39,705 nt of DNA from a virus: the IMG/VR virus record IMGVR_UViG_3300043120_000159, positions 1 to 39,705 of that record; one strand, given 5' to 3'. The notes beneath the pieces are model-generated. The model was not told where the DNA came from and made no database searches. It saw nothing but the letters and a program-made list of their open reading frames with translations. The number at the start of each line of letters is the position of its first letter. Position 1 is the stretch's first letter. This document shows positions 6,001 through 25,441 of this stretch, one piece after another. The position numbers and the translations under genes are program-made.

Positions 6001-6001
6001 G

Positions 6002-8506
6002 ATGGCATCCATGAATGAACGAGTGCAAGAGCTCATCAACTCTGTACAGACCTTTAACAACCAGGCGTCGCTGCTGTTGGCGGCCGTGGGACAGGGGCAG
6101 CTGGATCCCGAGAAGATCCAGGAGCAGATCCAGACAGCCACCCAGTCGGCGATCGACGCCGTACTGGCCCAGCTCGACGGATATGACGCAACCACCATTC
6201 TGCAGCGACAGGATATGTTGAAGCTGGCGCAGGACATCCGCAACGTGACCGACGACGAGAAGTTTTTCTTCGAGTTCTTCCGCCGCCCGTTCTCGTTTGC
6301 CGACCAGATCGAAGTCGGCAGCGTTGTCACTGTGGCGGGCGACGAATCCGTGGACTGCGCAGACACCTCCCTGCTGGAGGTCGGGCAGGAATACGTTATC
6401 TGCTCGGGAGACCTCCGCGAGACCGTGACTGTCGAGGCCGTATTGACCTCCACCCGGTTCCGCGCCACGTCCGAGGTGTCCGCATCATACTCCGGAGCCA
6501 CGCTGAAAAGGACATCCGCCCAACTCGACGGACAGTCTACCCGCTTTGCTCCCGGAGACATCTACTACGGCGGCAAGTTTGCGCTTGGCCTGGCCGATGT
6601 GGACAAGGCTATCCTCATTCGCCGCGGGGCTGTCGGAGAGCTGTCGGTCTACTTCCAGGACGCAACCCACGAATCTTGGACGCTGGCTCCCTGGGAATGG
6701 GTGCGGACCAATGAGGACGGTACACAGGATGTCGAATACCGACTTCCAGCTCGCGGTGATTTTGATATCAAGATCGTGAACGAGTCCGACGTTGAAGTCG
6801 TGACTCAGTATATCGTTGGCGTGCACCAGGACACCGGCCTGCTGGGCGACCACCATCCGCCCGTCAAGCCCACCAACGTCTCTCCGGCCGCCGGGGCCAT
6901 CGACCTGCAGGAAACCCCGACGCTGACCGGCTCTGTTTACAGTCACCCGCTCGGAACGTCGCAAGGCGCTCTGCAGGTTCGCGTCTACAGCGACGCGGAC
7001 AGCTATGCGGAAGCGATCTACGACTCTGGCGAGCAGCCCGCCGGGTCCAGCTTCAAGCTCCCCGCGGGAATCCTTTCCGTAGGCGGCACGTTCAAGTGGG
7101 AGATTCGCTACAAAGACAGTCAGGGCGCATGGTCCCCCTGGTCGGATATGACCGCGTTCGATACTGCGGCTTCGTTTGTCTACATCGAGACGCCGACCCT
7201 CACCAACCCTGGCAACGGCGCAACGGACATTCCTGAGCAGCCGACCCTGACCAGCTCCCCGTTCACTGTGTCCGGCGGCTCTGACAACCACGTCGGATCC
7301 AGGTGGATGATCCGTGAAGCCGGAGGCTCCTACGACACCCCCGTTTACGACTCCGGCAGCTCGCTCGACTTGGAGTCTCACGTGGTTCCCGCCGGCAACC
7401 TGCAGGACGGTGAAGTCACATACTACGCCAAGGTCCAGCACGAAGGTGAAACGCTTGGCGCTTCAGAGTGGTCCTCGGAGATCAGCTTTACCACCAAGGA
7501 CCTGTTTGCGGTGATCGTCGGCATTGCCCAGGTGGCTTCCGGCGGCGGCGCAGGAACGTGGCAGCGCGTCGACGAAGACGGAAACAACAAGACTACCGAC
7601 ACCGCATACTTCAACAACCATCCGACCTACGCAGGGATTCAGGACGCCACCATCGACGGGCAGGCCATGGTCCAGATTCCCAAGTTCTACTACAAGGTCG
7701 CGCAGGCCCCCGCCGGCAGCGACCAAGCTGGCAAGAAGTGCTGGTGGATCTCCGATCAGCCCGCCGCAGGCTTTGAGCTGCACCCCGCATTCATGGACGG
7801 CGGAGTAGAGATCGACCGCTTTTACGTGGGTAAATACGAAGGCACCGATGACGCGGGAACCAAGGTCGGCTCCGCTGCCGGCGTTTCCCCTCTTGTGTCT
7901 GTCGACTTCACGACCATGCACTCCCGTTGCGCCGCCAGGAATACCGACGGAGTTGAGGGGTTCCACATGTGGAACATCCACGAACTCAGCGCCATTCAGA
8001 TGTTGGCGCTGATCGAGCTCGGCACGCCCGATGCCCAGTCGGCCATTTCCGCCGGCAACACGAACAGCTCTTCAGCGGTTAACACCGGCGCGTCCGGAGC
8101 AGTTTGGCGCGGGATCCACGAGCTGTGGGGGAACGTATGGGGCGCGGTTGACGGCTTTAAGACCGACACCAGCAACCGCTTGGAAGTCTTCGACCGCCTT
8201 GGCAACGAAACCTACATCAACACCGGGACGGTCATCACGACCAGCGGGTGGACCACGTCCATGCTCGAAGCCTCTGGCGCAGATTGGGACTTTGCCAGCA
8301 TGTTCGCTGCGGCCAATGTGGACAGCACTGAAGGCAACGGCACTTTTGCCGATTACTGGCAGTCGAACTCCGCCGGCAGTGAATATGTCTGCTACCACGG
8401 CGGCAGCTGGGGCAGCGGCTCGCCCGCGGGCTTGTTCTCCTTGCTCTTGCACGCCGTCGCTTCGACCTCGTACGCGGACCGCGGCTGCCGCCTCGCCAAA
8501 CGGTAA
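6002..8506 (+). CDS. Tail fibre / receptor-binding protein, DGR target 1 (Mtd-like, C-type-lectin/FGE-fold C-terminus carrying VR1)
   Basis: 834 aa from ATG 6002, with GGAGAAGGAGAA upstream (frame opens at 5888). Two tandem FN3-like repeats at nt 6851..7505. The C-terminus ...CYHGGSWGSGSPAGLFSLLLHAVASTSYADRGCRLAKR aligns with the TR with adenine-specific differences. Confidence 0.9.
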   Translation: MASMNERVQELINSVQTFNNQASLLLAAVGQGQLDPEKIQEQIQTATQSAIDAVLAQLDGYDATTILQRQDMLKLAQDIRNVTDDEKFFFEFFRRPFSFADQIEVGSVVTVAGDESVDCADTSLLEVGQEYVICSGDLRETVTVEAVLTSTRFRATSEVSASYSGATLKRTSAQLDGQSTRFAPGDIYYGGKFALGLADVDKAILIRRGAVGELSVYFQDATHESWTLAPWEWVRTNEDGTQDVEYRLPARGDFDIKIVNESDVEVVTQYIVGVHQDTGLLGDHHPPVKPTNVSPAAGAIDLQETPTLTGSVYSHPLGTSQGALQVRVYSDADSYAEAIYDSGEQPAGSSFKLPAGILSVGGTFKWEIRYKDSQGAWSPWSDMTAFDTAASFVYIETPTLTNPGNGATDIPEQPTLTSSPFTVSGGSDNHVGSRWMIREAGGSYDTPVYDSGSSLDLESHVVPAGNLQDGEVTYYAKVQHEGETLGASEWSSEISFTTKDLFAVIVGIAQVASGGGAGTWQRVDEDGNNKTTDTAYFNNHPTYAGIQDATIDGQAMVQIPKFYYKVAQAPAGSDQAGKKCWWISDQPAAGFELHPAFMDGGVEIDRFYVGKYEGTDDAGTKVGSAAGVSPLVSVDFTTMHSRCAARNTDGVEGFHMWNIHELSAIQMLALIELGTPDAQSAISAGNTNSSSAVNTGASGAVWRGIHELWGNVWGAVDGFKTDTSNRLEVFDRLGNETYINTGTVITTSGWTTSMLEASGADWDFASMFAAANVDSTEGNGTFADYWQSNSAGSEYVCYHGGSWGSGSPAGLFSLLLHAVASTSYADRGCRLAKR
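8398..8496 (+). repeat. DGR variable repeat VR1
   Basis: Base-by-base alignment to TR 9229..9327 (offset 831). There are 18 differences: 17 at TR adenines and one T->G opposite TR 9312. No change opposite any TR C or G. Confidence 0.92.
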
Positions 8507-8534
8507 ACTGAAACCTGCAACCTGAAACACTGAA

Positions 8535-8556
8535 GGTCCCCGCGAGAGCGGGGGCC
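8535..8556 (+). promoter_or_regulatory. GC-rich hairpin with GAGA tetraloop downstream of VR1 (DGR target-recognition element)
   Basis: ggtccccgc-gaga-gcgggggcc forms a 9-bp stem (one G-U) with a GNRA loop. It starts 29 nt after the target stop codon. A counterpart follows VR2. Confidence 0.7.
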
Positions 8557-8572
8557 ATAAAGGAGATACACT

Positions 8573-8872
8573 ATGAGTCTCGGACAGACTATTTCGTGGG
8601 GCCCTGTGGAAGATCTGAATCTGGACGCATTCAACTACAGCGTGCCCGAGGCGGACCATCGCCAACGCGTCAGGGTTTATTCCGTCCCCACTGACGTCGA
8701 CGCCGGCGGCTACTTCGTCGCCGTGTCTGCGCCCTGGGACCCAGTCGTGGTCCCCCCCAGCAGGGTGAAGGACACCGCGCTGCTGGTTGAGTACGACCTT
8801 GACCCCGACGGAACCTTCCAGGTCAAGACCATGCTGCCGCAGATCAAGCGGGCAATGCAGGTGCCCTATTGA
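8573..8872 (+). CDS. Hypothetical protein between DGR target and avd
   Basis: 99 aa with AAAGGAG RBS 8 nt upstream. No recognisable motif. Position suggests a fibre-assembly or DGR accessory role. Confidence 0.55.
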   Translation: MSLGQTISWGPVEDLNLDAFNYSVPEADHRQRVRVYSVPTDVDAGGYFVAVSAPWDPVVVPPSRVKDTALLVEYDLDPDGTFQVKTMLPQIKRAMQVPY

Positions 8873-9213
8873 GCCTGATGGACGGACTGAAGATCCTGGC
8901 CAAGATGGAGGAGCTTGACGCATACGCCCACAAGGCCATGCTTCAGTTTCCGAAATATGAACGCCATGTGCTGTGCGCGGCCATTCGCGAGACTTCCGCG
9001 GGGATTATCCGTTTGGTCGTGCGCTGCGCAAAGCGCTACCACAAAAAGACCTCGCTTCAGGATTTGGACATTGAAGTCGAATACCTGAGAACTCTTGTGA
9101 GGAAGGCTCATGCGCTGGGCTACATCAACGTCCATCGCTATGAAGTGTGGTCTCGCCATATTGACGAAGTGGGGCGCATGGTCGGGGGCTGGATCAAGCA
9201 TGTAAAATCTTAG
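8869..9213 (+). CDS. avd: DGR accessory variability determinant (Avd, four-helix-bundle protein)
   Basis: ~112 aa and basic. FPKYERHVLCAAIRETSAGIIRLVVRCAKRY...LDIEVEYLRTLVRKAHALGYINVHRYEVWSRHIDEVGRMVGGWIKH matches the four-helix-bundle/Avd pattern. It is immediately upstream of the TR and RT. Start is TTG 8869 or ATG 8878. Confidence 0.8.
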   Translation: MSLMDGLKILAKMEELDAYAHKAMLQFPKYERHVLCAAIRETSAGIIRLVVRCAKRYHKKTSLQDLDIEVEYLRTLVRKAHALGYINVHRYEVWSRHIDEVGRMVGGWIKHVKS

Positions 9214-9228
9214 GGCAGGCACCTGTTA

Positions 9229-9327
9229 CGGCGGCAACTGGAGCAACGGCTCGAACGCGGGCTTGTTCAACTTGAACTTGAACAACGTCGCTTCGAACTC
9301 GAACACGAACATCGGCTGCCGCCTCGC
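9229..9327 (+). repeat. DGR template repeat (TR)
   Basis: 99 nt with 23 adenines. In the VR frame it encodes GGNWSNGSNAGLFNLNLNNVASNSNTNIGCRL with 10 AAC codons. It matches VR1 and VR2 except at adenines. The 3' GC-rich block cggctgccgcctcgc is shared by all three copies. Confidence 0.92.
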
Positions 9328-9500: not shown

Positions 9501-10571
9501 GTGCCGAAAACACATGGCGACCTTTGGAAACAGATCATCTCATTCGACACGCTCTGCGGAGCCTTTAACCAGGCCCGCCTCGGAAAACGCTACACGCCTG
9601 AAGCACTACGGTTCGCCAGCCGACTTGAAGAAAATCTGATCAATATCCAGAACCACCTGATTTGGAAGACATGGTCTCCGGGTAAATGGAGGGAGTTCTG
9701 GGTTTACGACCCGAAGTGGAGACAGATTCAGGCGCCGCCCTTCTACGATCGCGTTGTCCACCATGCGCTTGTGAGCGTTGTTGAGCCTCTTTTTGAGCGC
9801 AAGTTTATTCACGACTCGTATGCCTGTCGGCGCGGTAAGGGCACTCACGCCGCCGTGTACCGCCTTCAGTCTTTCTTGCGACGCACGCGGCGGCACTGGC
9901 CGCGGGTTTACGTCGTCAAGGCCGACATCTCGAAATACTTTCCATCCATAAATCACTCCAGACTGGAGCAACAGCTCGGCAGAACCCTGCGCGACCAGGA
10001 CGCCTTATGGCTGTGTAGCAAAATCATACGCGAAAACGGATATGAAAGGCGGGGCATTCCTGTGGGCGCCCTTACTTCGCAGCTTTTTGCCAACATTTAC
10101 CTGAACGAGCTGGACCACTTCGTGAAGGATGAACTTGGAGTAAAGCACTATGTCCGGTACATGGATGACTTTGTTTTTCTTGGCCCGGACAAGGCCCGCT
10201 TGCGGCGGCTACTTTCCGTCATCGAGGAAAAGCTCGTCATGGATTTGCGGCTTGCCTTGAACCCAAAGACCTGCATTTTCCCCGCATCAAGAGGTGTGGA
10301 CTTTGCCGGGTATCGCACTTGGGCCACCCACATAAAGCCTCGAAAAAAGAACGTCACAAGAATGCGCAAGCGGCTCACGCGCATGGCTGATCTTTACGCC
10401 CAGGGCCGCGCATCCCTTGAGGATGTCCGCGCAAGGGTGATGTCGTTTATTGGATACATGAAACACTGCTCTGGCCACGTGACGACCCAAAGAGTTCTTC
10501 AGGAGATCGTTTTGACCAGGGAGAACAAGGCGCAGGAACAAGAGCCTGCGCCAAGGAGGTGGAAGTTATGA
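9501..10571 (+). CDS. DGR reverse transcriptase
   Basis: 356 aa with a GTG start after GAGGAG. Catalytic YVRYMDDFVFLG. The DGR-clade motif IPVGALTSQLFANIYLNELD (GxxxSQ) is present. It is adjacent to avd and the TR. Confidence 0.95.
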   Translation: MPKTHGDLWKQIISFDTLCGAFNQARLGKRYTPEALRFASRLEENLINIQNHLIWKTWSPGKWREFWVYDPKWRQIQAPPFYDRVVHHALVSVVEPLFERKFIHDSYACRRGKGTHAAVYRLQSFLRRTRRHWPRVYVVKADISKYFPSINHSRLEQQLGRTLRDQDALWLCSKIIRENGYERRGIPVGALTSQLFANIYLNELDHFVKDELGVKHYVRYMDDFVFLGPDKARLRRLLSVIEEKLVMDLRLALNPKTCIFPASRGVDFAGYRTWATHIKPRKKNVTRMRKRLTRMADLYAQGRASLEDVRARVMSFIGYMKHCSGHVTTQRVLQEIVLTRENKAQEQEPAPRRWKL

Positions 10572-11429: not shown

Positions 11430-12320
11430 TCAAGAACCCAAGCCCTTGGCCCTGCGAGGCCCCTGATACTCATTCGTCTTCCTGCCCGAAGACGTGCCAA
11501 CCTTCCTGGCCGGTCCCGCTTCTTCTGAGGCGGGGCCGCGCCGGGATTTTATCGCCTCGAGCATGGCCTGATGAACAAGCTCCTCCGGAGCGTTGGCTCT
11601 TTCGAACTCCCTTCGCACATCTTCCAGCTCTCGACCAAGCTCAGACTTGCCCGCCTCCTCGCCCTGAGATGGCCCCTGAGCGTCTTCTTTGTCTTTTCCG
11701 GGGAACACCCCGGCAAAGGCGGGCGAAATGCTCCCTGTCTCAAGTGAGGCAGTTTCTTTTGCCCACCTGCGCTGGGCAACCTCAGACAGAGGCCCGCCCT
11801 GTGAAAAAATATCTCCATCCACAGTAGGCTGCCCGATTTGCGCGAGAGCAAAGTTGGCGTTCAAGCCATAGCGGACTACCCACCGGGCCAAAGCCAGCGC
11901 CGGGGGCTGAAGACGTGCGCCAAGACAGGCGTCGAGACAGGCACGATTCATTCCACCTACTTTCGCGACTTCGTCCAGGTCGGCCTCAACCTCTCCTTCG
12001 AAAAAATCCCTCAGCGCATCCGCAGTGGCCACGAGATCCGAGTTGAACTCGGCGTCGGCTGGGTCGAAATAAGCATCCGGCCCCCTTGGCGCATACATTT
12101 CGCCTTCACCTGTCAGCAGCCAGCCAGGGTCAACGCCAAAATTTAGTGAAAAAGCCGCGACGGTTTGCACGTTCGGCAGGGCAGCCCCCTCCAGATAGTT
12201 CCGGAGAGTCTGGGGCTTCTTGATACCGGCCTTTGCGGCCATATCCTTGAGGGAGAGCCCTTGCTCATCTTTGATTGCGCAAAGCCGTTGCGCGAACTGT
12301 TCCTTGTTAAAAAAAGACAT
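11430..12320 (-). CDS. CI-like lysogeny repressor (XRE-family HTH)
   Basis: N-terminus FAQRLCAIKDEQGLSLKDMAAKAGIKKPQTLRNYLEGAALPNVQTVAAFSLNFGVDPGWLLTGEG is a classic HTH_3 domain. It is transcribed divergently from the early genes. Confidence 0.75.
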   Translation of the reverse strand: MSFFNKEQFAQRLCAIKDEQGLSLKDMAAKAGIKKPQTLRNYLEGAALPNVQTVAAFSLNFGVDPGWLLTGEGEMYAPRGPDAYFDPADAEFNSDLVATADALRDFFEGEVEADLDEVAKVGGMNRACLDACLGARLQPPALALARWVVRYGLNANFALAQIGQPTVDGDIFSQGGPLSEVAQRRWAKETASLETGSISPAFAGVFPGKDKEDAQGPSQGEEAGKSELGRELEDVRREFERANAPEELVHQAMLEAIKSRRGPASEEAGPARKVGTSSGRKTNEYQGPRRAKGLGS

Positions 12321-12333
12321 CGACTCCGTTTCC

Positions 12334-12349: not shown

Positions 12350-12412
12350 ACTTTTGGTCTACCAGTTAAGGCAACACATTTTTATAAACCTTTAACACAA
12401 GGAAATATCGTT

Positions 12413-12712: not shown

Positions 12713-12774
12713 TTTTCTCATGATTCGCTGATGCAATCTTTTTTCGAAACCTTCCACGATAAAAACGGAGAAAA

Positions 12775-13251
12775 ATGACCATGTCGATAGACCCGTCCAC
12801 CCATCGGAGCCTTGTAGACCTCTTGTACGAGGTCGCCCACCGCGCTCCATCTGGAAAATCATTCACGCAGATCGCGGAGCTCATGAACAAGCCGTACTCG
12901 ACTCTGGCCAGCGAGCTGAACGCCGGGATCGACACCCACAAGTTCGGGGCCGGGGATCTTCTTTTGCTTATGGAGCTTGCCGAGAGCGACGCCCCTGTCG
13001 ACTTTCTGGCGCAAAAGCGTGGCGGCGTTTTTGTGAAGATGCCTCGCATCAAGGCCAAAGGGCCCATCGACCAGGCGTCCATTAAGGCTGTTAAGGAGTT
13101 TGGCGAACTCATGGCCGCGTATGGCCAGGCGCTTGAAGACGGAAAGCTCAAAAGCCACGAGCGCAAGGAAGTCCTCAAGGAAGGCTATGAAGCCATCGAA
13201 GCCGTGATGGCCCTGTTGCGCCACGTAGAAGATATGGAGATCTCGGAATGA
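12775..13251 (+). CDS. Phage regulatory protein CII-like (CP76 family)
   Basis: FTQIAELMNKPYSTLASELNAGIDTHKFGAGDLLLLMELAESDAPVDFLA...ALEDGKLKSHERKEVLKE fits the Phage_CP76 pattern. It sits after the cro-like gene. Confidence 0.55.
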   Translation: MTMSIDPSTHRSLVDLLYEVAHRAPSGKSFTQIAELMNKPYSTLASELNAGIDTHKFGAGDLLLLMELAESDAPVDFLAQKRGGVFVKMPRIKAKGPIDQASIKAVKEFGELMAAYGQALEDGKLKSHERKEVLKEGYEAIEAVMALLRHVEDMEISE

Positions 13252-13856
13252 GCTCGGCATGGATCCAGACACAGAGCGGCCAACAGTTCTTTCCTTTTGA
13301 TCCCTTTCGCAACGAATACAGGATCGAGGACATAGCTCATGCGCTTGGGAATATATGTCGGTTCGCCGGGCACACCAAAGAGTTCTACAGTGTTGCCCAG
13401 CATTGCGTCTTGGTCTCGGAAAACGTCCTGCCGGAGTTCTCCAAGTGGGGGCTTCTCCATGATGCGGCCGAAGCGTACTTCGGGGACCTTCCGAGCCCAA
13501 TCAAGTCCATCATGCCGGAATACCACGCCGTAGAACATCAAACGGCAGCGCTTATTGCTGACGCGTTCGACATAACGCTCGACCCCGAGATGGAACTGGC
13601 AGTCAAGATGGTAGACAGGCTCGTTTTTTGGGGAGAGGTCGCGCAGCTGATGCAGCCTATTCACCCCGACCTCCGCCACCAGATGAAAGAGGTCGGCATC
13701 GGCGACCAGGGCCCGGACATCAAAATCACCCCCTTGCCCCCCGCCCAGGCCTCAGCGCTTTTCCTGAATCGGTTTCAGGAGCTCTGGCTCGACAAGAACA
13801 AGGAGAGCCGCGATGAAGACGCTCTTGGCTTTATGGAAAACCAGAACCGAACTTGA
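13248..13856 (+). CDS. HD-domain phosphohydrolase
   Basis: EDIAHALGNICRFAGHT...YSVAQHCVLVS...WGLLHDAAEAYFGDLPSPIK carries the H...HD...D metal-binding pattern of the YfbR-like HD family. Confidence 0.6.
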   Translation: MSSAWIQTQSGQQFFPFDPFRNEYRIEDIAHALGNICRFAGHTKEFYSVAQHCVLVSENVLPEFSKWGLLHDAAEAYFGDLPSPIKSIMPEYHAVEHQTAALIADAFDITLDPEMELAVKMVDRLVFWGEVAQLMQPIHPDLRHQMKEVGIGDQGPDIKITPLPPAQASALFLNRFQELWLDKNKESRDEDALGFMENQNRT

Positions 13857-14031
13857 ACGGCTTTCTTGCCAGCCCGAGCTCCTGCCGAGCGAAAAGGCCG
13901 CGCTTCGCGGCGCGAGAGGGACTTTGAAGTTTATCGCCGAACGGCTGGAAGAAAGGGAAGCCAGGGACAATGAACCAGACTGGAGAGAAGCCCAACTGCC
14001 GAACGGAGATCGAGAAGAACTTGCGAGGTGA
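13813..14031 (+). CDS. Hypothetical small protein
   Basis: 72-aa charged ORF that overlaps the end of the HD gene by 44 nt. No motif. Confidence 0.35.
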   Translation: MKTLLALWKTRTELERLSCQPELLPSEKAALRGARGTLKFIAERLEEREARDNEPDWREAQLPNGDREELAR

Positions 14032-14033
14032 CC

Positions 14034-14183
14034 ATGTCGGCTACTTACGTGACCCTAGGCGCCCTGACCCTGTTTGCAGTGGGGCTGGCGGCAATTCGAC
14101 TGATGAAAAGGCTCAAGGCCAAAAGACGCGAGACAGGGCTGTCTTTGGACTTTGAGAAGATGAAAGCAAACGAGCGAATATAG
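14034..14183 (+). CDS. Hypothetical small membrane protein (49 aa, single TM)
   Basis: Translated by hand: MSATYVTLGALTLFAVGLAAIRLMKRLKAKRRETGLSLDFEKMKANERI. GAGGTG lies upstream. It is below the ORF-track length cutoff. Confidence 0.3.
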   Translation: MSATYVTLGALTLFAVGLAAIRLMKRLKAKRRETGLSLDFEKMKANERI

Positions 14184-14193
14184 GAGCAAAAAC

Positions 14194-15405
14194 GTGAATA
14201 CCAATGTTTCCGAAGCAATCAAGCTGGCCCTTGCTGAATTGGAGAAAGCCGAAGAAAAGCACCCCAACTGGCCATCCGATCCGATTCACGCGGCGGCAAT
14301 AGTGGCCGAAGAGGCTGGAGAGCTGATCCAAGCGTCACTGGACACCACCTATTCCGGCGGAAGCCAAGACAGGATGCGCGCCGAGGCATCTCAGGTGGCT
14401 GCTATGGGGCTTCGATTCCTTGCAAACCTCTCTACCCCAGGCCTTCGCGAACCTCACGTTGTCGGAGTTTCGTTCGACGGCGCAGGAACGTGGCAGCGCG
14501 TCGACGAAGACGGAAACAACAAGACCACCGAAACCGCATACTTCAACAACCATCCGACCTACGCAGAGATTCAGGACACCACCATTGACGAGCAGGACAT
14601 GGTCCAGATCCCCAAGTTCTACTACAAGGTCGAGCAGGCCCCCGCCGGCAGCGACCAGGCTGGCAAGAAGTGCTGGTGGATCTCCGATCAGCCCGCCGCA
14701 GGCTTTGAGCTGCATCCCGCATTCATGGACGGCGGAGTAGAGATCGACCGCTTTTACGTGGGCAAATACGAAGGCACCGATGACGCGGGAACCAAGGTCG
14801 GCTCCGCTGCCGGCGTTTCCCCCTTGGGCGGGCTTGATTTTTGCGAGACGAAAGAGCGCTGCGAAGCAAGAGGCGCAGGATGGGGGATGTGGGACATCTG
14901 GCAGCTTGGTGCCATCCAGATGCTGGCACTGATCGAGCTTGGCACGCCCGACGTCCAGTCTGTCGTCTCGAGAGGAAACGTGAACGGGTCGGGGCTACGG
15001 AAGACAGGGAGCACTGGAGCAGTCTGGCGCGGGATCCACGAGCTGTGGGGCAACTCTCTTCACATGGTGGACGGACTCGTTGCCAACCCTGAGAACCGGC
15101 TCTTTGTTCGTTCCTCTGAAAACCAGAAAGCATGGTTGGATGTAGGCGCCGAAGCATGCGCAAGATCGGGATGGATAAGCGCATTCGAAAGCAAGGTTCC
15201 CGCCGCATTTGTCCCGAGCGAAACAGGGAGCGATGATGAAGTCGTGGGCGACTATTACTGGCCTGCATACAAGGGCGAGGAAAATATCTGCTACCACGGC
15301 GGCCACTGGAGCTACGGCTCGTACGCGGGCTTGTTCTACTTGGACTTGCACTACGTCGCTTCGTACTCGAACACGAACCTCGGCTGCCGCCTCGCCAAAC
15401 GGTAA
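14194..15405 (+). CDS. DGR target 2: chimeric MazG-like N-terminal domain fused to CLec/FGE-fold domain carrying VR2
   Basis: GTG start after TAGGAG. aa 1..~90 (KHPNWPSDPIHAAAIVAEEAGELIQ...ASQVAAMGLRFLANL) resemble small phage MazG-like NTP pyrophosphohydrolases. From GAGTWQRVDEDGNNKTT onward it parallels the tail-fibre C-terminal domain. It ends ...CYHGGHWSYGSYAGLFYLDLHYVASYSNTNLGCRLAKR (VR2). Confidence 0.85.
   Translation: MNTNVSEAIKLALAELEKAEEKHPNWPSDPIHAAAIVAEEAGELIQASLDTTYSGGSQDRMRAEASQVAAMGLRFLANLSTPGLREPHVVGVSFDGAGTWQRVDEDGNNKTTETAYFNNHPTYAEIQDTTIDEQDMVQIPKFYYKVEQAPAGSDQAGKKCWWISDQPAAGFELHPAFMDGGVEIDRFYVGKYEGTDDAGTKVGSAAGVSPLGGLDFCETKERCEARGAGWGMWDIWQLGAIQMLALIELGTPDVQSVVSRGNVNGSGLRKTGSTGAVWRGIHELWGNSLHMVDGLVANPENRLFVRSSENQKAWLDVGAEACARSGWISAFESKVPAAFVPSETGSDDEVVGDYYWPAYKGEENICYHGGHWSYGSYAGLFYLDLHYVASYSNTNLGCRLAKR
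15297..15395 (+). repeat. DGR variable repeat VR2
   Basis: Alignment to TR 9229..9327 (offset 6068). There are 9 differences, all at TR adenines (9236, 9245, 9254, 9269, 9275, 9281, 9284, 9296, 9311). Confidence 0.92.
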
Positions 15406-15434
15406 ACTGAGCCCTGCAACCTGCATTCTGAACA

Positions 15435-15452
15435 GGATCGCGAAAGCGAGCC
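15435..15452 (+). promoter_or_regulatory. Hairpin with GAAA tetraloop downstream of VR2 (DGR target-recognition element)
   Basis: ggatcgc-gaaa-gcgagcc starts 30 nt after the stop codon. Spacing and GNRA loop match the VR1 hairpin. Confidence 0.65.
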
Positions 15453-15470: not shown

Positions 15471-15752
15471 ATGAAACATGAAGCCGCCTCTTCGACAGTC
15501 GAGATAGTCAAGAACACCATCAAGGAGCTGTTTTCCGATGCTGCCGACCTGGCTCGTCTCGGGCACAAGGAGCTGCTCACGGGACGCGAGGTTGAACTGA
15601 TCTACAGCTACCCGTCGTCAACCCAAGAAAAGGATCGGTGCGCAGGCATCGGGCCCTCGTACATCAAGAGGGGGAAGCGAGTCCTGTATCGTCGTCGGGA
15701 TCTGGATCAGTATTTCGGCGCTTTGAGAGTGAAAACCAGAGACCAGGTGTAA
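15471..15752 (+). CDS. xis: Excisionase / AlpA-type HTH DNA-binding protein
   Basis: ELLTGREVELIY...GIGPSYIKRGKRVLYRRRDLDQYF matches the MerR/HTH_17 excisionase pattern (G.GP.Y.K.G..V.Y...DL..W). It is adjacent to the integrase. Confidence 0.65.
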   Translation: MKHEAASSTVEIVKNTIKELFSDAADLARLGHKELLTGREVELIYSYPSSTQEKDRCAGIGPSYIKRGKRVLYRRRDLDQYFGALRVKTRDQV

Positions 15753-16872
15753 TGTCATGACGGAAAGCCGCATCAATACAATCAACGGCCTGCCTCTGGA
15801 CGTCGGGGCACAGGTGGCTATACCTCTCCGTCACTTCCTCGTTGGTGTGCCCCATCAGCTTGGCTATCCAATAGAGCGGGACGCCAGAGATGGCCAGCCA
15901 GCTCCCGAACGTATGACGAAGGGAGTGGAACACAACCCTGTGGCGGGAATCATCCACCCCTTTGTTGAACTCCAGCGCGTCCACGGCGCGTCGGAACATG
16001 GCGGACGGCTCCGTACGCACGCCGCCGGTGCGCGAAGGAAAGACGACCTGCCCCGGCGGCGTCGGCTTGCCCATAAACACGCGGCGCAGCTCTCCGGAGA
16101 TAAAGACAGTCCGGTCCCTTCCAGACTTCGTATCCTGAACCCGGATCGTCCCCGCGGACAGGTTCACCTGTTCGCCCTTCAGGCTGGCGATCTCTCCAAA
16201 GCGCATGCCGGTGTAAAGAGCGGCCACACAGACGCACCAGAAAGACTTCTGCGGGTCTCTGCAGCGCCTGTAAACCTCTTCAAGCAAGGCCCTTGCTTCA
16301 TCCGGAGACAGCCATCTTGCGCGGCGGTTGTCGTAGCGTGGCCACTGGATCCTATCCGTCGGCGCCTTTCCTCTGTAGACACCCCACGCCTCAACCTTGC
16401 GGTAGATTCTTCTGATCAGAGAGAGGGCGTGCTCAATGGTTTTCGGGCTTTTGCCCTGCTCCTGCAGGTCAGCCTTGAACGCTTCCAAATCCAGGGGGGA
16501 TATATCGCTCAGCATTTTTCCGCCGAGGGCATCCTTGAGAAGCGAGTTCCATCTGGACAACGTCTTCTGCGGGCTCTTGGTGTTCGCCAGGCAGTGGTTG
16601 TCGTAATAAAGAGCCCACGCCTCCTTCAGCGTCAAGCTGTCCTCTCCGCGCACCTGAGGCTGCTCGCCAAGCCGAACCTGGTTGAGCAGCTCTGTGCGCT
16701 TCTGCGCGGCGTAAGCCGCATCGACACCATCGGAGCGCCATCCAATTTTGTGCCGCTCTTTCTTGCCTTTGTTCTTTATTGTGACGTAGTAGCAGACGTC
16801 TGGACGGCCTTGAAACCGTCGGGTGGTAGACGCGTAAAAATAGACCCCTGTGAACTTCTTGACCCGCTCCAA
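15664..16872 (-). CDS. int: Tyrosine integrase (site-specific recombinase)
   Basis: 402 aa. The catalytic residues are present: TGMRFGEIASL (R), FHSLRHTFGSW (HxxR) and GHTNEEVTERYSHL (H...Y). The start appears to be TTG. It is adjacent to the tRNA-like attP core. Confidence 0.92.
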   Translation of the reverse strand: MERVKKFTGVYFYASTTRRFQGRPDVCYYVTIKNKGKKERHKIGWRSDGVDAAYAAQKRTELLNQVRLGEQPQVRGEDSLTLKEAWALYYDNHCLANTKSPQKTLSRWNSLLKDALGGKMLSDISPLDLEAFKADLQEQGKSPKTIEHALSLIRRIYRKVEAWGVYRGKAPTDRIQWPRYDNRRARWLSPDEARALLEEVYRRCRDPQKSFWCVCVAALYTGMRFGEIASLKGEQVNLSAGTIRVQDTKSGRDRTVFISGELRRVFMGKPTPPGQVVFPSRTGGVRTEPSAMFRRAVDALEFNKGVDDSRHRVVFHSLRHTFGSWLAISGVPLYWIAKLMGHTNEEVTERYSHLCPDVQRQAVDCIDAAFRHDITPGLWFSLSKRRNTDPDPDDDTGLASPS

Positions 16873-16875
16873 TTT

Positions 16876-16924
16876 TTTGCCCCTTTTTTGCCCCCATACA
16901 ACGTATTTGCCCCCGTTTTGCCCC
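16876..16924 (+). repeat. Four direct TTTGCCCC(C) repeats on the int side of attP (candidate arm-type integrase sites)
   Basis: Copies start at 16876, 16887, 16906 and 16917, with 10..19 bp spacing, just upstream of the int start codon. Confidence 0.55.
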
Positions 16925-17029
16925 TTTGTGCGGCAACATGCGGAAGCGTGAGGAAATTCAAAACCTCTTTAATACTGGGGACTAGCGGCGTCAAGCAGGG
17001 TGTGGAGGCTTGCGGCAAAGGTGTAGTAA

Positions 17030-17079
17030 TCGGGCTCATAACCCGAAGGTCAGAGGTTCAAATCCTCTCCCCGCTACCA
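17030..17079 (+). other. attP core: 3' portion (anticodon arm to CCA) of an initiator tRNA-fMet
   Basis: TCGGGCTCATAACCCGAAGGTCagaGGTTCAAATCCtctCCCCGCtACCA contains the anticodon stem tcggg/cccga with a CAT anticodon and the GGG:CCC pairs typical of initiator tRNA. It also has the T-arm agagg-ttcaaat-cctct, the 3' acceptor strand and CCA. No matching 5' acceptor strand or D-arm lies upstream. Confidence 0.75.
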
Positions 17080-17087
17080 AGAATATC

Positions 17088-17130
17088 AAGGACTTACGGA
17101 CATAGTTTCCGTAAGTCCTTTTTCTGTTTT
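17088..17130 (+). terminator. Rho-independent terminator following the tRNA fragment
   Basis: aaggacttacgga (17088..17100) pairs with tccgtaagtcctt (17108..17120) as a 13-bp perfect stem, followed by tttctgtttt. Confidence 0.75.
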
Positions 17131-17279
17131 GCCCCCTATTTGCCCCCACGCTGCAACCTGGCTGCGTCCTGCCGCCGGGAAAATCCCTCTTTCACCATAA
17201 TTTTTTGCCCCCTATTTGCCCCCTGCTCAAGCCTTTTCGAGCTGTGCAGCGTAGGCTTTTGCCCCCTTTTTGCCACCCC
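17127..17279 (+). repeat. Six further TTTGCCCC-type repeats on the other side of attP, including an exact 21-bp duplicate
   Basis: ttttgccccctatttgccccc occurs at 17127..17147 and again at 17203..17223. ttttgcccccttttTGCCACCCC is at 17257..17279. All copies share the orientation of the left cluster. Confidence 0.55.
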
Positions 17280-17611
17280 TGACGATAGCACACGTCGCCA
17301 CCTGGGCCTTCGTGCTTTGCCAGCCTGCGATCATCATCGCGGCCGCCGCCAGCGGCCGCATCCACTGAGTGGTCCGCACTCCCTTCTTTCCCCCCGCACC
17401 CCCTCCCAAAAGGGAGCTGAGAAAGGTCTAATTGCAGGTCCGCAAATCTGCAGCCGACTTTGGGTCCTCCCAAGGCCACCCGGAATACGGGTGCTCCGAA
17501 TCTCGATGTTTTCGCGGGGTCGGACATTTAATTATTTTACAACTTTACAATTCTTGCTCCGGCCTGCCGAAGGGCTCCGGCCAATAAAACTCGCGCAAAA
17601 GGTGGTCGACT

Positions 17612-19285
17612 ATGGACGTTAAAAAGGAAGTGGAACAGGCGGTCGCTGAAGAGCGAGCAGCCCACAAACCAAACGAGCAGCCAGAAAACGAACCGCCAAA
17701 GGACAGCAAGCCGCGGGACAAGAGCTTTTTCGACCAGCTGCGCAAAGACTTCGACGACAACCACATGGGGGACGCCCGCCGGTTTTCGGAAAAGTTCGAC
17801 GGCAGGCTGGCCTACGACAATATCCAGGGCCGGTGGTTCATCTACGAGAAGACGCATTGGCAACAGGATCGAGGGAAGGTCCACACACACAAGGTGACGG
17901 AGATCGCCGACGACTACAAAGCTCAGAGCCACTGGATGGCTCAAAAGATAAACGAGGAAAAGGCCAAGCCTGAGTTTCAGGCCATGGCCAAGGGAGAGCA
18001 GAAGGACTTCCTCCGCCCGATGATCGCCAACCAAAAAGCCTACGAGTCCCGGGCAAAGGAACTCAAGGATCCGGCGCGGATTAACAAGGTGCTCTCGTTG
18101 GCCAGCGTGGCCACGCCTGGCTACCTGGGCGTGGTCGGCAAAGAATGGAACGAGGATCCCTGCCTATTTGCCTGTGGAAACAGGGTGATCGACCTGAGGA
18201 CCGGGAAGGCGTTGGAACCAGATCCTAAGTTCTACATCAACCGTGCCTCCACGATTGAGTGGGCTGGACTTCAAGCCGAAAGCCCCCTCTGGGAAAACTT
18301 CCTTAGCCAGGTGTTCAACGGAGATGTGGAGCTGATCGACTACATCCAAAAGTGTGTTGGATACTGGATGACAGGACTCATGACCCATCAGGAGTTCTAT
18401 TGCCTGTGGGGGCCACAAGGTCGCAACGGCAAAGGTGTGTTTTTCCGGACACTCCGGATGGTCATGGGCAGCTATTTCCAGATGATGCCTTCCAAATACC
18501 TGCTCGACGAAAAAAGCCTGCAGAACACCGACAAGCCGGACCAGCACCTAGTGGCCCTTGAGCACACCAGGCTGGCCTGCGCATCCGAGGCCCCGAAAAA
18601 AGCACGATTCTCGGAAGGCGCAATCAAGCAGCTGTCTGGGGGTGACCCAGTTACCTGCCGCGGCATGTATGCGCTGGATGTGACTGAGTACATCCCGAAG
18701 TTCAAAATGCTTTTTGCAACAAACCGCGTGCCAACTGTCAACGGCGACGACAAAGCATTTCAAGAGCGGCTCCGGATTATCAAATTCCCGTGCACATTCA
18801 AACACGGGGTAGAAGCGGATCCGGAAGCAAAGGTCTACCCGATGGATCCACAGCTCGAAAAGAAGCTGCACACTATGGACAACCTCCAGGGGATTCTGGC
18901 CTGGGCTGTGCGCGGCGCCGTCGAGTTTATTGCATCGGGCACCCTTATGCCGCCCGAGTCCGTTCTCTCAGACACCCGCAGCTTCATGGAAGACAACGAC
19001 TTCATCGGCGAGTTCATACGCGACTGCCTCGAGGTTCACCCGGACGCGCCAGAAAGCAACACGCCGAAGGAGCAGAAGACTCAGATGAAGCACATCTACG
19101 AAGCCTTCCGCAAGTGGTCCATCGAGGAAAAGGCCGTACCTGAAAACAAGGTCTGGTCTATGCGAGCCCTGGGCAGCGACTTCGGGAACCGGACGGACAT
19201 CCACCGCGTCAGCCCTAAGAACTTGGTTTTCTACAACATAACCATCAAGCCGGAGTGGCGCGAGAAAGAGCAGGCTCAATTCTAG
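17612..19285 (+). CDS. Replicative helicase/primase, P4-alpha / poxvirus D5 NTPase family
   Basis: 557 aa. Walker A is in WGPQGRNGKGVFFRTL. The D5_N-like region is WNEDPCLFACGNRVIDLRTG. ...LACASEAPKKARFSEGAIKQLSGGDPVTCRGMY is typical of the phage/plasmid primase P4 C-terminal domain. Confidence 0.8.
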   Translation: MDVKKEVEQAVAEERAAHKPNEQPENEPPKDSKPRDKSFFDQLRKDFDDNHMGDARRFSEKFDGRLAYDNIQGRWFIYEKTHWQQDRGKVHTHKVTEIADDYKAQSHWMAQKINEEKAKPEFQAMAKGEQKDFLRPMIANQKAYESRAKELKDPARINKVLSLASVATPGYLGVVGKEWNEDPCLFACGNRVIDLRTGKALEPDPKFYINRASTIEWAGLQAESPLWENFLSQVFNGDVELIDYIQKCVGYWMTGLMTHQEFYCLWGPQGRNGKGVFFRTLRMVMGSYFQMMPSKYLLDEKSLQNTDKPDQHLVALEHTRLACASEAPKKARFSEGAIKQLSGGDPVTCRGMYALDVTEYIPKFKMLFATNRVPTVNGDDKAFQERLRIIKFPCTFKHGVEADPEAKVYPMDPQLEKKLHTMDNLQGILAWAVRGAVEFIASGTLMPPESVLSDTRSFMEDNDFIGEFIRDCLEVHPDAPESNTPKEQKTQMKHIYEAFRKWSIEEKAVPENKVWSMRALGSDFGNRTDIHRVSPKNLVFYNITIKPEWREKEQAQF

Positions 19286-19289
19286 CGCC

Positions 19290-19560
19290 TACGTCGAAGG
19301 TCTCCGCTTTTGTCTATGGAAACGACTAAAGGAGTAAACACATGAAAACAAACATTTTTCCATTCCTTTTTATCCTACCTTACCCCTCTTACCCCTTTTT
19401 CTTAGAAAGTAGAGAGAGAGAGAAAGTAAAAAGAGAAATAGATAGGTTTTACATAGGGGGGAGTAACAGTGAAAAAAGGTCTATTCTCTCTAAGTTTGAC
19501 AGTTTTTTCAATTACTGCGGTTCTTTATACCAAAAGACTGTCTTTTTAAGGGGCCAGTCA
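19290..19560. other. AT-rich island with polypyrimidine/polypurine tracts (candidate origin of replication)
   Basis: Composition drops sharply against the GC-rich background. ttccattcctttttatcctaccttacccctcttacccctttttctt is followed by agaaagtagagagagagagaaagtaaaaagagaaatagatagg. It lies between the two replication genes. Confidence 0.45.
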
Positions 19561-19634
19561 TTGACTAAGGAACTGAGACAAAGGCGAAGATTTGCCCCCG
19601 ACTTTGACCTTTCGGCTGCCTGCTTGGCGAAAAG

Positions 19635-21149
19635 ATGCCTGCCGGCAGAAGGGGGTGCGCAATGAGCATGGCACTGGACCGCCTAGGCAGTGAGGAACGA
19701 AGGGTAATAGCTGAGAATCTGCTGACAGAAGCAAAGCCGTTCAAGGCTGGAGAGCTGACAGCACACTGCCCTTTCCACTTGGAAGGGACCCCCGGTGGCG
19801 CGTTTTTTTATAACCATGAGCGCGACCTGGCATACTGTCACAGCTGCGGGCAGAACTCCGACCTGGTCGGGATATACAACGCGGTCAACGGTCGCGACGT
19901 GGACGATTCTGAGGGGTGTCGTGAGTTTCTAAAAACCTATTGCCCGAACTCTGGCGGGACACGCCCTGTCCGACAAGGTGAACGGCCTCGCCGGCCCGAA
20001 GGATGGTCCCCTCCTTCAACCGCGTTCCCCCCAGACTTGTGGATTCAAAAGGCGACCGACTTCGTAGGGCATTCGGTTGATCGCTTGCAGGAAAATAAAG
20101 AGCAACTTGCAGAGTTAGCCCGGTGTGGGATCAGCCCGAAAGTGGCCAAGCTCTGCAGAATGGGATGGAACGACAAAGACAAGTGGCCACCCGTTACAGC
20201 GTGGGGGCTTCCTCACGAGAAGAACGAACGGGGAAAAGAGAAAAAAATATGGCTCCCAGAGGGATTGGTTATCCCGGCGATACGAGATGGCCAAGTGGTC
20301 AAGCTGAAGGTGCGCCGCCCCAACCCCAGAACACCCTGGGGCGATGACCGTAAATACTGGGAAGTCAAAGGCGGCGCCAACGGCCTTTTCCATGTTTACG
20401 GGCGCCCGACATTCCGGATTTGGGTGCTCGTCGAAACAGAGCGAGACGCTGCAATGGTGTGGGCTCTTTGCCATGACCTGGGCGTCGGGGCGATCGGGGC
20501 CGGTGGAGCCGCAAAGCGTCCGTGTGAATTTGTGACCGGAATCCTGCGCAGGGCCAAGGTTATACTCAACGCACTGGACTACGATCCCGCCGGCGCGACG
20601 AACACCTATAAGTTTTGGGAGCAGGAGTTCCCGAACAGCGTTCGCTACCCCGCCCCGCCGTCAATGGGAAAAGACGTCGGCGACGCGTACAGGAACGGCC
20701 TCGATGTCCGTCAATGGGTATGGGAAGGCCTCCCCGGATTCGTCCAAAGATATCTGCAAAACATGGCCGGCCAACCCGAAACGACGGAGCAGTCGCAGGA
20801 GTCAGCCGCCCAAGAGCAGCCTCAAGCGGCAACCCCACGCCCCACACTCGGGCAGGTTTTGCAATGGATGGAGCCCTGGCCTCTTTGGAGGCAGGAGCTT
20901 TCCGAGTTTTATTCCGCGATGGCGGAGACAGAGTTTCGAATCTTTCGTCGTCAAGGGGATGACGGGCTTTGGATGGGCATCGAAAGCAATGACTGGGATG
21001 CGCTGAGAGAAGACGAGCCGCGCCGGATCCTTTTTGTCACGCTGAGAGAGCGGCTCTTCAACCGCATAGAGCTTGATCCTGATCTTGGCTTGAACTCGCT
21101 CGACAACATCATCAACCACTATTTCGGCGACTACTTGGAGGTGCGCTAA
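19635..21149 (+). CDS. DNA primase (zf-CHC2 zinc finger + Toprim-like domain)
   Basis: CPFHLEGTPGGAFFYNHERDLAYCHSCGQNSDLVGIY is a CHC2 primase zinc finger. The central VLVETERDAAMVWAL...ALDYDPAG is Toprim-like. The more likely start is ATG 19662, after GAAGGGGG. Confidence 0.7.
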   Translation: MPAGRRGCAMSMALDRLGSEERRVIAENLLTEAKPFKAGELTAHCPFHLEGTPGGAFFYNHERDLAYCHSCGQNSDLVGIYNAVNGRDVDDSEGCREFLKTYCPNSGGTRPVRQGERPRRPEGWSPPSTAFPPDLWIQKATDFVGHSVDRLQENKEQLAELARCGISPKVAKLCRMGWNDKDKWPPVTAWGLPHEKNERGKEKKIWLPEGLVIPAIRDGQVVKLKVRRPNPRTPWGDDRKYWEVKGGANGLFHVYGRPTFRIWVLVETERDAAMVWALCHDLGVGAIGAGGAAKRPCEFVTGILRRAKVILNALDYDPAGATNTYKFWEQEFPNSVRYPAPPSMGKDVGDAYRNGLDVRQWVWEGLPGFVQRYLQNMAGQPETTEQSQESAAQEQPQAATPRPTLGQVLQWMEPWPLWRQELSEFYSAMAETEFRIFRRQGDDGLWMGIESNDWDALREDEPRRILFVTLRERLFNRIELDPDLGLNSLDNIINHYFGDYLEVR

Positions 21150-25367: not shown

Positions 25368-25441
25368 ATCCTTCGCCGTGATTGATAGTGCAAGTTATTT
25401 TCTATAACTATACACGAATCAATCAAAAACGGAGGTACGAT

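Follow-up and report, generated by a model that had tools for sequence, protein, structure and literature searches.

To our knowledge, nearly everything learned about the diversity-generating retroelements (DGRs) of phages concerns tropism switching by tail fibres. In the DGR of Bordetella phage BPP-1 (mtd-avd-TR-brt), an accessory variability determinant (Avd), a template repeat (TR), and a reverse transcriptase (RT) lie downstream of a fibre target whose C-terminal C-type-lectin-fold (CLec) domain carries the variable repeat (VR). Here we describe a DGR-bearing phage genome, IMG/VR record IMGVR_UViG_3300043120_000159, which was analysed whole as a window of 39,705 nt and to which all positions below refer unless a contig is named. 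In this window, a single cassette appears to serve both the tail-fibre gene (target 1) and a gene at 14194..15405 in the early region (target 2). The best overall explanation, which we consider very probable, is that a domain of the fibre gene was duplicated and fused to an early gene and that it now forms a second DGR target, diversified in trans.

The cassette resembles that of BPP-1 in its layout, in the adenine-only differences between TR and its copies, in the AAC codons of TR, in a VR 3' flank that is distinct from the TR flank, and in a GC-rich hairpin, with a loop of 4 nt, that follows each VR. Hairpins at this position have a role in target recognition at the VRs of BPP-1 and may have one here. 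The BPP-1 fibre protein Mtd is also among the Foldseek matches of target 2 (E ~2e-4). Unlike BPP-1, the window has two targets, the second of which lies 6 kb from TR in the early region and is not a tail protein by position or by N-terminal architecture. The parts of the cassette and of target 2 are as follows; IMH stands for initiation of mutagenic homing.

5999..8506, + strand: target 1, tail-fibre gene with Ig-like and CLec domains; VR1 (8397..8496) at its 3' end
8869..9213, + strand: avd, accessory variability determinant (Pfam bAvd, 1.9e-27)
9228..9327, + strand: TR, the sole template repeat in the window
9501..10571, + strand: DGR reverse transcriptase (Pfam RVT_1, 2.4e-22)
14194..15405, + strand: target 2, 403-aa fusion protein; GTG start, AGGAG 8 nt upstream, TAA stop
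14194..14433, + strand: N-terminal module, aa 1-80; predicted three-helix, with motifs AEEAGEL and E64xxQ
14434..14457, + strand: linker and fusion junction, aa 81-88 (STPGLREP H); no secondary structure in the full-length AlphaFold2 model
14458..15402, + strand: C-terminal FGE-type CLec domain, aa 89-403; paralogue of the fibre C terminus
14479..14828, + strand: segment A, 350 nt, ~95% identical (16 differences) to fibre 7547..7896
15296..15395, + strand: VR2, 100-nt variable repeat with adenine-only mismatches to TR
15396..15423, + strand: IMH-like 3' flank CAAACGGTAAACTGAGCCCTGCAACCTG, 26 of its 28 bases the same as in the VR1 flank
15435..15452, + strand: hairpin GGATCGC-GAAA-GCGAGCC; 7-bp stem with one mismatch, GNRA loop

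Among characterised DGR proteins, target 2 is also like TaqVP, from a Thermus aquaticus prophage DGR (5VF4), in having an FGE-type CLec domain with a C-terminal VR, in being prophage-encoded, and in size (381 aa in TaqVP). The match of TaqVP to the target 2 model has a TM score of ~0.5 and a sequence identity of ~15-17%. TaqVP differs in being a cassette-adjacent target and is a single-domain monomer, the first 111 residues of which wrap the CLec domain; it is without a helical module like that of the nucleoside triphosphate pyrophosphohydrolases (NTP-PPases) (PMC6328139). Targets that are not adjacent to the cassette are common in prophages, where many second VRs lie within 50 kb of RT (Wu et al. 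2018, PMC5758913), and Baykov et al. described gut phages with two CLec targets of different topology, the "tentaclins" (PMC10743442). As in the window, one TR and RT in these non-adjacent and two-target systems serve a second VR elsewhere in the same prophage; unlike target 2, second targets in the literature have been called adhesin-like or structural or have not been characterised. The prophage DGRs of Desulfovibrio piger act on fibre-like FGE-sulfatase proteins, and no second target of the kind described here was reported for them (PMC12724379).

Enzyme-like DGR targets are known from cellular genomes, in which the N-terminal domains include proteases, kinases, NTPases, TIR domains, and metallophosphatases (categories b4 to b12 in PMC5758913), and NACHT/STAND targets have been proposed to act as intracellular "antigen sensors" (PMC10907252). 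These proteins share with target 2 an effector- or enzyme-like N terminus joined to a diversified FGE-type CLec C terminus, and they are predicted not to be secreted. Unlike target 2, they are chromosomal, belong to another DGR lineage, are large and multidomain, and are associated with defence, whereas target 2 is phage-encoded, is only 403 aa long, has a small helical module, and has no PADLOC match. In the full text of the literature, we found no described DGR target fused to a MazG-like or NTP-PPase-like module and no second target described in an early operon beside xis and int. A first-pass annotation of this DNA, made from its letters alone, named no precedent for a hypervariable binding domain joined to a nucleotide-hydrolase-like module at such a location. 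The claim to novelty has to be narrowed, as non-adjacent targets in prophages, two-target phage DGRs, and enzyme-fused cellular targets have all been published (PMC5758913, PMC10743442, PMC10907252).

VR2 as a target of the shared cassette

A repeat family (D2) consisting of three copies of a ~144-nt element joins 8381-8524 (VR1, at the fibre 3' end), 9212-9355 (TR, between avd and RT), and 15280-15423 (VR2, at the 3' end of target 2). In an in-register alignment of TR (9228..9327) and VR2 (15296..15395), there were nine mismatches, all nine at TR adenines. Adenines account for 24 of the 100 TR bases, and the calculated chance that all nine mismatches would hit them, C(24,9)/C(100,9), is ~7e-7. 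VR2 has zero non-adenine differences from TR; VR1 differs from TR by 17 adenine mismatches and one T>G change. The latter (G at 8481, against T at TR position 9312) is also present in an identical phage contig, L018. When VR2 was compared with the TR of its own genome in two diverged relatives, mismatches again fell on adenines, in 12 of 12 cases in L001 (a JGI contig) and in 11 of 11 in L003 (a prophage in a 4.55-Mb contig of Desulfovibrio sp. 7SRBS1).

Other parts of the locus fit a shared cassette. Repeat analysis and a Pfam scan of the window found one RT, one Avd, and one TR and no second TR or RT. The 28-nt 3' flank of VR2 closely matches that of VR1 and is unlike that of TR (AACCGGGCTCAAGCC...), a pattern that would be expected of an IMH versus IMH* pair. 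GC-rich hairpins with GNRA loops begin 39-40 nt past each VR. That of VR1 (8535..8556) has a 9-bp stem and a GAGA loop; that of VR2, which begins 40 nt past the VR2 end and has a GAAA loop, is kept in all relatives. Based on the sequence of these elements, we conclude that target 2 is most plausibly a genuine second target of the single cassette (TR, Avd, and RT) of this phage. The first-pass annotation had likewise proposed that VR2 is served by the same TR and RT, and the adenine-only mismatches in three genomes, the shared IMH-like flank and hairpin, and the presence of several alleles all agree with this. Its nine adenine-only differences were recovered in our alignment, and its placement of VR2 at 15297..15395 was correct to within one base, at a TR-to-VR2 distance of 5.97 kb.

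VR2 spans 13 adenine-containing TR codons (10 AAC plus AGC, ACG, and ATC), which by calculation allow ~3.7e13 possible VR2 peptides. Part of this diversity is visible in database relatives. At 90% identity, the cluster formed around the closest relative in the database comprises 11 proteins, including one identical to that of the window (P0142, on five contigs on record), and relatives at 89-98% identity include WP_424299611.1 from Desulfovibrio sp. 7SRBS1. Three proteins (P0143, P0145, and P0149) have 0 differences in 366 non-VR residues and 9-10 in the last 37, which form the VR segment, and all of the latter fall at adenine-containing TR codons. Mismatches to the window TR were almost exclusively at adenines in all VR copies recovered from seven related contigs and also in eight further VR alleles from other contigs. 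These patterns indicate that VR2 is diversified in natural populations; an invariant VR2, which had been named beforehand as grounds for doubt, is not what we found, as alleles differ on otherwise identical proteins. Exact-pattern scans of a metagenome collection for VR2-flank and IMH sequences returned nothing, and the IMH scan of IMG/VR returned one contig only, which covers VR1 alone.

Two details of the alleles bear on how VR2 evolves. Codon 377, for which TR encodes Asn, specifies Tyr in six of the nine distinct VR2 alleles compared and never does so in VR1 alleles, a bias that hints at selection on VR2 content. At TR index 14, the TR of L001 differs from that of the window in having G instead of A, and this G recurs in the two VRs of the contig (copies at 5035-5134, 4204-4303, and 11103-11202 of L001). 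The shared G is consistent with a TR mutation that was copied into both targets, as flow from TR to VR would predict.

The fusion that carries VR2 is under constraint. Several independent assemblies, made from different samples, contain a fusion of the same 403-aa architecture, as does the 4.55-Mb contig of Desulfovibrio sp. 7SRBS1 (WP_424299611.1), and relatives differ by synonymous and nonsynonymous changes with no frame disruptions. Ratios of nonsynonymous to synonymous substitution rates (dN/dS) were computed by the Nei-Gojobori method among the window, L001, and L003, with an overall dS of 0.09-0.22. They were 0.12-0.17 for the N-terminal 95 codons and 0.17-0.27 for the non-VR part of the lectin domain; in the VR, the ratio is undefined, with 7-14 nonsynonymous and 0 synonymous changes. 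These values point to purifying selection on both halves of target 2. A full-length protein search found both halves together only in clusters P0022 and P0023, so that the fusion is limited to a narrow phage lineage. With the upstream HD phosphohydrolase as bait, a search for relatives with an unfused N-terminal gene returned only an unrelated locus (41% identical) from IMG/VR and only Desulfovibrio sp. 7SRBS1 from GTDB genomes.

The lectin-fold half and the N-terminal module

The open reading frame (ORF) of target 2 runs from 14194 to 15405 without interruption, and its product is chimeric, as first proposed, with aa 1-80 matching stand-alone proteins and aa 96-403 matching the fibre C terminus. 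The latter segment is 64% identical to the C terminus of the fibre gene product (BLASTP, E=3e-134), with the homology starting at aa 96 of target 2 and aa 517 of the fibre, and it matches phrog_5302, annotated "tail protein" (8e-41). The full-length AlphaFold2 (AF2) model has a pLDDT of >90 for aa 89-403. The best Foldseek match in the PDB is TaqVP (5VF4, E=1e-15), followed by PvdO, Mtd, FGE, and TvpA, which together identify an FGE-type CLec fold, and VR2 encodes the C-terminal, putatively ligand-binding surface of this fold. The C-terminal half is thus the expected paralogue of the fibre ligand-binding domain, without the N-terminal and Ig-like parts of the fibre. Many homologues of this module are short proteins (300-430 aa) with unrelated N termini of ~100 aa, some of them Mtd_N, and often belong to large variable clusters.

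Direct reading of the N terminus of target 2 (MNTNVSEAIKLALAELEKAEEKH) revealed no hydrophobic stretch resembling a signal peptide, in line with the first-pass annotation. Stand-alone homologues of the N-terminal module end, in the alignment, a few to ~15 residues past the RFL motif. Synthesis of a separate CLec protein from an internal start was considered and rejected: there is no in-frame ATG, GTG, or TTG between aa 88 and 135, and Met136 is without a good ribosome-binding site on direct reading. Searches of PADLOC defence families gave zero matches for target 2 or its neighbours.

The N-terminal module is 50-67% identical over aa 1-80 to stand-alone proteins of 72-158 aa, and a profile search returned 4404 cluster representatives at E<=1e-3, mostly of 80-170 aa. 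Pfam, NCBIfam, and PADLOC gave zero family matches for it, and its PHROG matches have no known function. By homology, the module belongs to a large family, so far without annotation, of small early proteins of phages. Stand-alone members occur in phage early regions beside NUDIX and NAD synthase genes, Mu Gam, or ParB and int, and other proteins have the module joined to DUF4406 or a P-loop kinase-like domain. The window module keeps every family-invariant residue, including EEAGE (39-43, on helix 2) and E64 (on helix 3).

Modelled alone, the module was predicted by AF2 to form three helices (pLDDT 90). Foldseek matches to the PDB were weak (E 1.2-6, TM 0.42-0.50) and were enriched in MazG, HisE/PRA-PH, and DCTPP1/RS21-C6 structures. 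In BFVD, the matches that follow the family members are phage models annotated as NTP-pyrophosphohydrolase or pyrophosphatase (TM 0.65-0.72, E 0.05-0.07, prob 1.0). We also aligned the module by hhalign with five phage proteins that we take to be of DCTPP1 type; they were retrieved with a bait sequence, and one of the five is annotated MazG-like in its record. AEEAGEL fell on (I/G)E(A/S)xEL and E64 on the Glu of ELADV (E=0.02-0.03 as a single comparison). The module is like the MazG, HisE, and DCTPP1 NTP-PPases in its predicted helical bundle, as far as the BFVD and the weak PDB matches indicate, in EExGE on helix 2 and a Glu on helix 3, and in its early-region neighbours with functions in nucleotide metabolism. 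Two further sets of matches were discarded: Pfam I_LWEQ (E ~0.009, below the gathering threshold, and recurring in family members) as noise from helical composition, and PDB sequence matches to a designed helical protein and to ATP-synthase subunit d (E>0.4, with the single sequence and two profiles) as chance.

Several features speak against an NTP-PPase assignment. The query has no significant profile match to MazG, MazG-like, PRA-PH, dUTPase_2, or any NCBIfam family; the best Pfam match is PRA-PH, at E ~0.09-0.11, in 2 of 22 and 5 of 148 family members, and searches of PDB sequences with N-terminal profiles found zero NTP-PPases. The module is unlike these enzymes in having three predicted helices, the fourth helix of the NTP-PPase fold being missing, and in having ExxQ/H for ExxD, with the position of the Asp taken by Q67 in the window and by Q, H, or E across the family. 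Two fused lineages, P0151 and P0023, have E40V in the EExGE motif, and P0151 also has W26R. This substitution implies that catalysis, if there is any, is dispensable, and it suggests that some lineages of the fusion are less constrained at the putative metal site. On balance, we regard the module as NTP-PPase-like in predicted fold and in context, with membership in the MazG family not established. The first-pass call of a MazG-type N terminus therefore holds for the predicted fold and part of the motif (EEAGE and E64) and fails for the profile match, the helix count, and the ExxD motif. The absence of a MazG-like fold, which would have told against that call, was not observed, and here the evidence is at the level of the fold (the BFVD matches).

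Origin and possible roles of the fusion

DNA homology between target 2 and the fibre gene starts sharply at 14478/14479. From there, identity is ~95% over 350 nt (segment A) and ~60-70% over the next ~450 nt, and it rises again in the VR and IMH. The first beta-strand of the lectin module, VVGVSF (aa 89-94), is conserved as well, and it lies upstream of the start of DNA homology. It follows that the original junction was probably in the linker (aa 81-88) and that segment A was homogenised later. Consistent with this, the segment A copies of target 2 have 16-28 differences among themselves and 15-34 to the target 1 copies, which suggests gene conversion between the two targets.

Based on these sequence features, we propose the following origin. 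The 3' ~0.95 kb of the fibre gene would have been duplicated into the early region, bringing along the whole FGE-type CLec domain together with the VR, the IMH-like flank, and the hairpin that lies beyond it. The piece would have joined the 3' end of a small early gene, a member of the widespread NTP-pyrophosphohydrolase-like family, where it replaced the stop codon and created the in-frame 403-aa fusion. Segment A may still be homogenised with the fibre gene by recombination, whereas the middle of the scaffold has diverged. The copied domain has retained all cis signals, and TR RNA, acting through Avd and RT, would therefore replace VR2 in trans as it does VR1. In this mechanism, the steps of which follow the Bordetella phage paradigm (PMC6182149), RNA from TR (9228..9327) would be reverse transcribed by RT-Avd with misincorporation at adenines, and the cDNA would replace whichever VR bears an IMH and hairpin, VR1 or VR2.

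The locus has continued to rearrange. A tandem duplication of window 13870..15428, with the same junction (15428 joined to 13870), is present in two contigs from different JGI samples (L021, 3293-6282, and L020, 1-1787). The duplicated unit comprises a small ORF and target 2, which gives two fusion genes that differ in their VR2 alleles. Between the samples, the VR allele is shared by the upstream copies and differs in the downstream ones. The upstream duplicate is without its native hairpin, and the junction supplies another GC-rich hairpin ~57 nt downstream. The idea that the first duplicate is "frozen" for want of a hairpin was considered and set aside as only anecdotal, given this substitute. 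In P0146, P0147, P0148, and P0150, the protein is 423 aa long because 60 nt shortly before VR2 are duplicated in tandem and in frame (VPSETGSDDEVVGDYYWPAY occurs twice), at the window equivalent of ~15205..15269. In a further contig (L002, 8891-12200, JGI 3300041959, encoding P0023), cII and most of the HD gene have been deleted after a cro-like gene, and next comes the N-terminal module, which continues through segment A to a target 1-like C terminus, a 99-aa ORF, avd, and TR. Host genes (MarR, NrdD, MCP, and a sensor kinase) adjoin directly on its left side. L002 could be either a recombinant prophage remnant in which the fusion is the sole DGR target or a chimaeric assembly across the repeat.

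The position of target 2 bears on when it would be made. As the first-pass annotation stated, the gene lies between the early regulators and xis/int. In our annotation, it comes after the cI-, cro-, and cII-like genes, and int is on the minus strand. The candidate early operon has the order cro-cII-HD-72aa-51aa-target2-xis. A promoter-like site was found upstream of the cro-like gene. Scans with E. coli-type consensus sequences, which are not calibrated for Desulfovibrio, found no sigma-70-like promoter immediately upstream of target 2 on the + strand, no terminator flanking it, and no terminator-like site on the + strand of 12300-15300 except one match inside VR2. Early lytic expression is accordingly the simplest reading of the scans, over expression in the lysogen from a promoter and terminator of its own, such as a lysogenic-conversion "moron" would have. 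Lysogen expression had been raised in the first-pass annotation and is not supported here because no separate promoter was found for target 2. The features of this region are listed below.

12220..12247, + strand: promoter-like site upstream of the cro-like gene, candidate early promoter (consensus scan only)
13248..13856: HD-domain YfbR-like deoxyribonucleoside 5'-monophosphate phosphatase (phrog_318, 1.5e-60)
15471..15752, + strand: xis-like small HTH protein (weak; Pfam HTH_17, E=0.015), a call supported by its adjoining int
15664..16872, - strand: tyrosine integrase (phrog_1, 7e-66; PF00589 on orthologues)
16999..17079, + strand: tRNA-Met copy marking attP (homology to the 7SRBS1 prophage)

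The HD YfbR-like gene sits three genes upstream of the NTP-PPase-like module, and the two form a small nucleotide-metabolism cluster within the early operon.

We tentatively suggest, with rather less than even confidence, that target 2 is an early-expressed, cytoplasmically made hypervariable binder whose CLec domain recognises a changeable ligand. The helical module would contribute an ancestral nucleotide-directed activity or a scaffold for oligomerisation, and the phage DGR would have a non-virion use. A narrower version, which we consider unlikely, is an intracellular sensor-effector in which the CLec binder, tethered to a nucleotide-pyrophosphohydrolase-like module and made early in infection, recognises changing proteins of host defence or of rival phages and acts in counter-defence or superinfection exclusion. 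Besides the doubts about the module itself, some points count against the overall explanation. The hairpin copies are all identical and give zero covariation support; E. coli-type consensus scans are weak evidence for a Desulfovibrio phage; and the full-length AF2 model has a pLDDT of ~60-65 in its N-terminal part and is not informative on inter-domain packing. The fold z-score of the whole 91-nt hairpin-bearing stretch is only -1.5. The low confidence in that part arises because the short N-terminal homologues were left out of the alignment, MAFFT having misaligned them when they were mixed with C-terminal homologues.

Target 2 could instead be a second receptor-binding protein, docked on the virion or soluble at lysis, that provides a second host-recognition specificity and uses its N terminus only for oligomerisation or attachment. 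We give this a minority share of our confidence. The C-terminal domain is, after all, 64% identical to the receptor-binding end of the fibre (~95% in segment A at the DNA level), its PHROG match is annotated "tail protein," many homologues of the CLec module have short, unrelated N termini of ~100 aa, some of them Mtd_N, and in the published two-target phage DGRs, both targets are proposed adhesins (PMC10743442). The E40V change in two lineages also suggests that the N-terminal module need not be catalytic. However, the gene is placed in the early operon beside xis/int, away from the structural genes, and lacks both the N-terminal (virion-attachment) and Ig-like parts of the fibre. Its N-terminal family otherwise consists of stand-alone early proteins with neighbours and fusion partners linked to nucleotide metabolism, and zero structural-protein families match the module.

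Other explanations assign the protein a lesser part or none. If target 2 were a recombination reservoir, its divergent scaffold would lie between homology arms (segment A and the VR/IMH) and could be converted into the fibre in the manner of silent cassettes. The high-low-high profile of identity to the fibre, the segment A paralogues that are as close within a genome as orthologues between genomes or closer, the recurrence of the tandem duplication with an identical junction in two samples, and L002, which is the exact hybrid expected from a crossover in segment A, followed by avd, would all fit. Nevertheless, we find this improbable: both halves, including an N-terminal module that would be irrelevant to a cassette, have dN/dS values of 0.12-0.27 with no disruptions in relatives; the ribosome-binding site of target 2 is good; L002 may be a chimaera assembled across the repeat; and a single crossover between the direct repeats would not exchange scaffolds but remove the DGR and the immunity region. 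Still less probable, in our estimation, is a passenger gene, that is, an accidental duplication that kept its IMH and hairpin and is hypermutated whether or not the protein is used. The restriction of the fusion to one narrow phage lineage (clusters P0022 and P0023) and the instability of the locus (tandem duplication, internal 60-nt duplication, and hybrid form) are what a passenger might show, whereas purifying selection on both halves at a dS of 0.09-0.22, an intact ORF in all relatives, and Tyr at codon 377 in six of nine VR2 alleles despite the Asn encoded by TR argue otherwise. An assembly or sequencing artefact, such as a stop or frameshift overlooked near 14440..14480 or a wrong join across the repeat, is hardly credible. 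A ~95% identical 350-nt direct repeat could mislead short-read assemblers, and the related contig L002 may be such a chimaera. In target 2, however, the junction (14434..14478) lies upstream of the repeat and is reproduced without frame disruption in several independent assemblies and the 7SRBS1 4.55-Mb contig. Together with the purifying selection, these assemblies exclude an artefact, against which the first-pass annotation had cautioned, for practical purposes.

A duplicated and diversified fibre domain fused to an early gene thus remains our preferred explanation of the locus. It would mean that a phage DGR has a second target that is active and under selection, is non-structural by position and architecture, has no export signal, and carries an early-gene domain resembling those of nucleotide metabolism. 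Should the protein work inside the cell, phages would be using DGRs in intracellular conflict in addition to adsorption, and if the sensor-effector version is true, target 2 would be the phage counterpart of the DGR-diversified "antigen sensors" for which a part in bacterial immunity has been proposed. The locus also illustrates how a new DGR target may arise, by duplication of a binding domain, IMH, and hairpin into an unrelated gene, with gene conversion and tandem amplification afterwards. Since a named strain, Desulfovibrio sp. 7SRBS1, carries the prophage, the system may lend itself to experiments, and the N-terminal family is worth study because it has thousands of members and no annotation.

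Phage genome and other neighbouring features

Repeat analysis of the window identified an exact 127-nt terminal direct repeat (bases 1-127 equal 39579-39705), which indicates that a complete genome was assembled in circular or terminally redundant form. We conclude that the window is a complete, circularly permuted genome of ~39.6 kb from a temperate Desulfovibrio phage. Its gene order begins with tail and baseplate genes, target 1, a 99-aa ORF, avd, TR, RT, and a Dam-like methylase. These are followed by a cI-like repressor (minus strand), the cro-like and cII-like genes, the HD/YfbR-like phosphohydrolase, two small ORFs, and target 2 and then by the xis-like HTH gene, the integrase (minus strand), tRNA-Met/attP, a P4-type primase, terminase, and the rest of the genes. 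No GenBank phage matched 12700-17700 in a Megablast search, whereas JGI metagenomes 3300036944, 3300043029, 3300036940, 3300035530, and 3300005882 contain this phage.

A strong bidirectional terminator hairpin (17088..17120) comes just after the tRNA-Met copy, and homology to the integrated prophage in Desulfovibrio sp. 7SRBS1 stops at 17129. This end point places the attP region at 16999..17129 and target 2 ~1.6 kb from the prophage end. The longest ORF on the + strand there (15757..17622, 621 aa) overlaps int and is probably spurious. It has no family match, and its GC content at third codon positions is 0.56, compared with 0.71 for the overlapping minus-strand integrase.

Two loci further along the genome may be of separate interest. 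The protein encoded at 24300..25367 matches the PADLOC candidate-defence models PDC-M41B and PDC-M30B (3e-67) and also phrog_2045, and its orthologue has DUF5131; the protein next to it has a weak PDC-S48 match. The two (24300..26098) may work as a pair in defence or anti-defence. A short ORF (19342..19665), which stands between the primase gene and the replication gene after it, lies in a markedly AT-rich island, with a GC content at the three codon positions of 0.39, 0.43, and 0.44, compared with 0.58 for the genome, and could represent a foreign insertion or an origin-like region.

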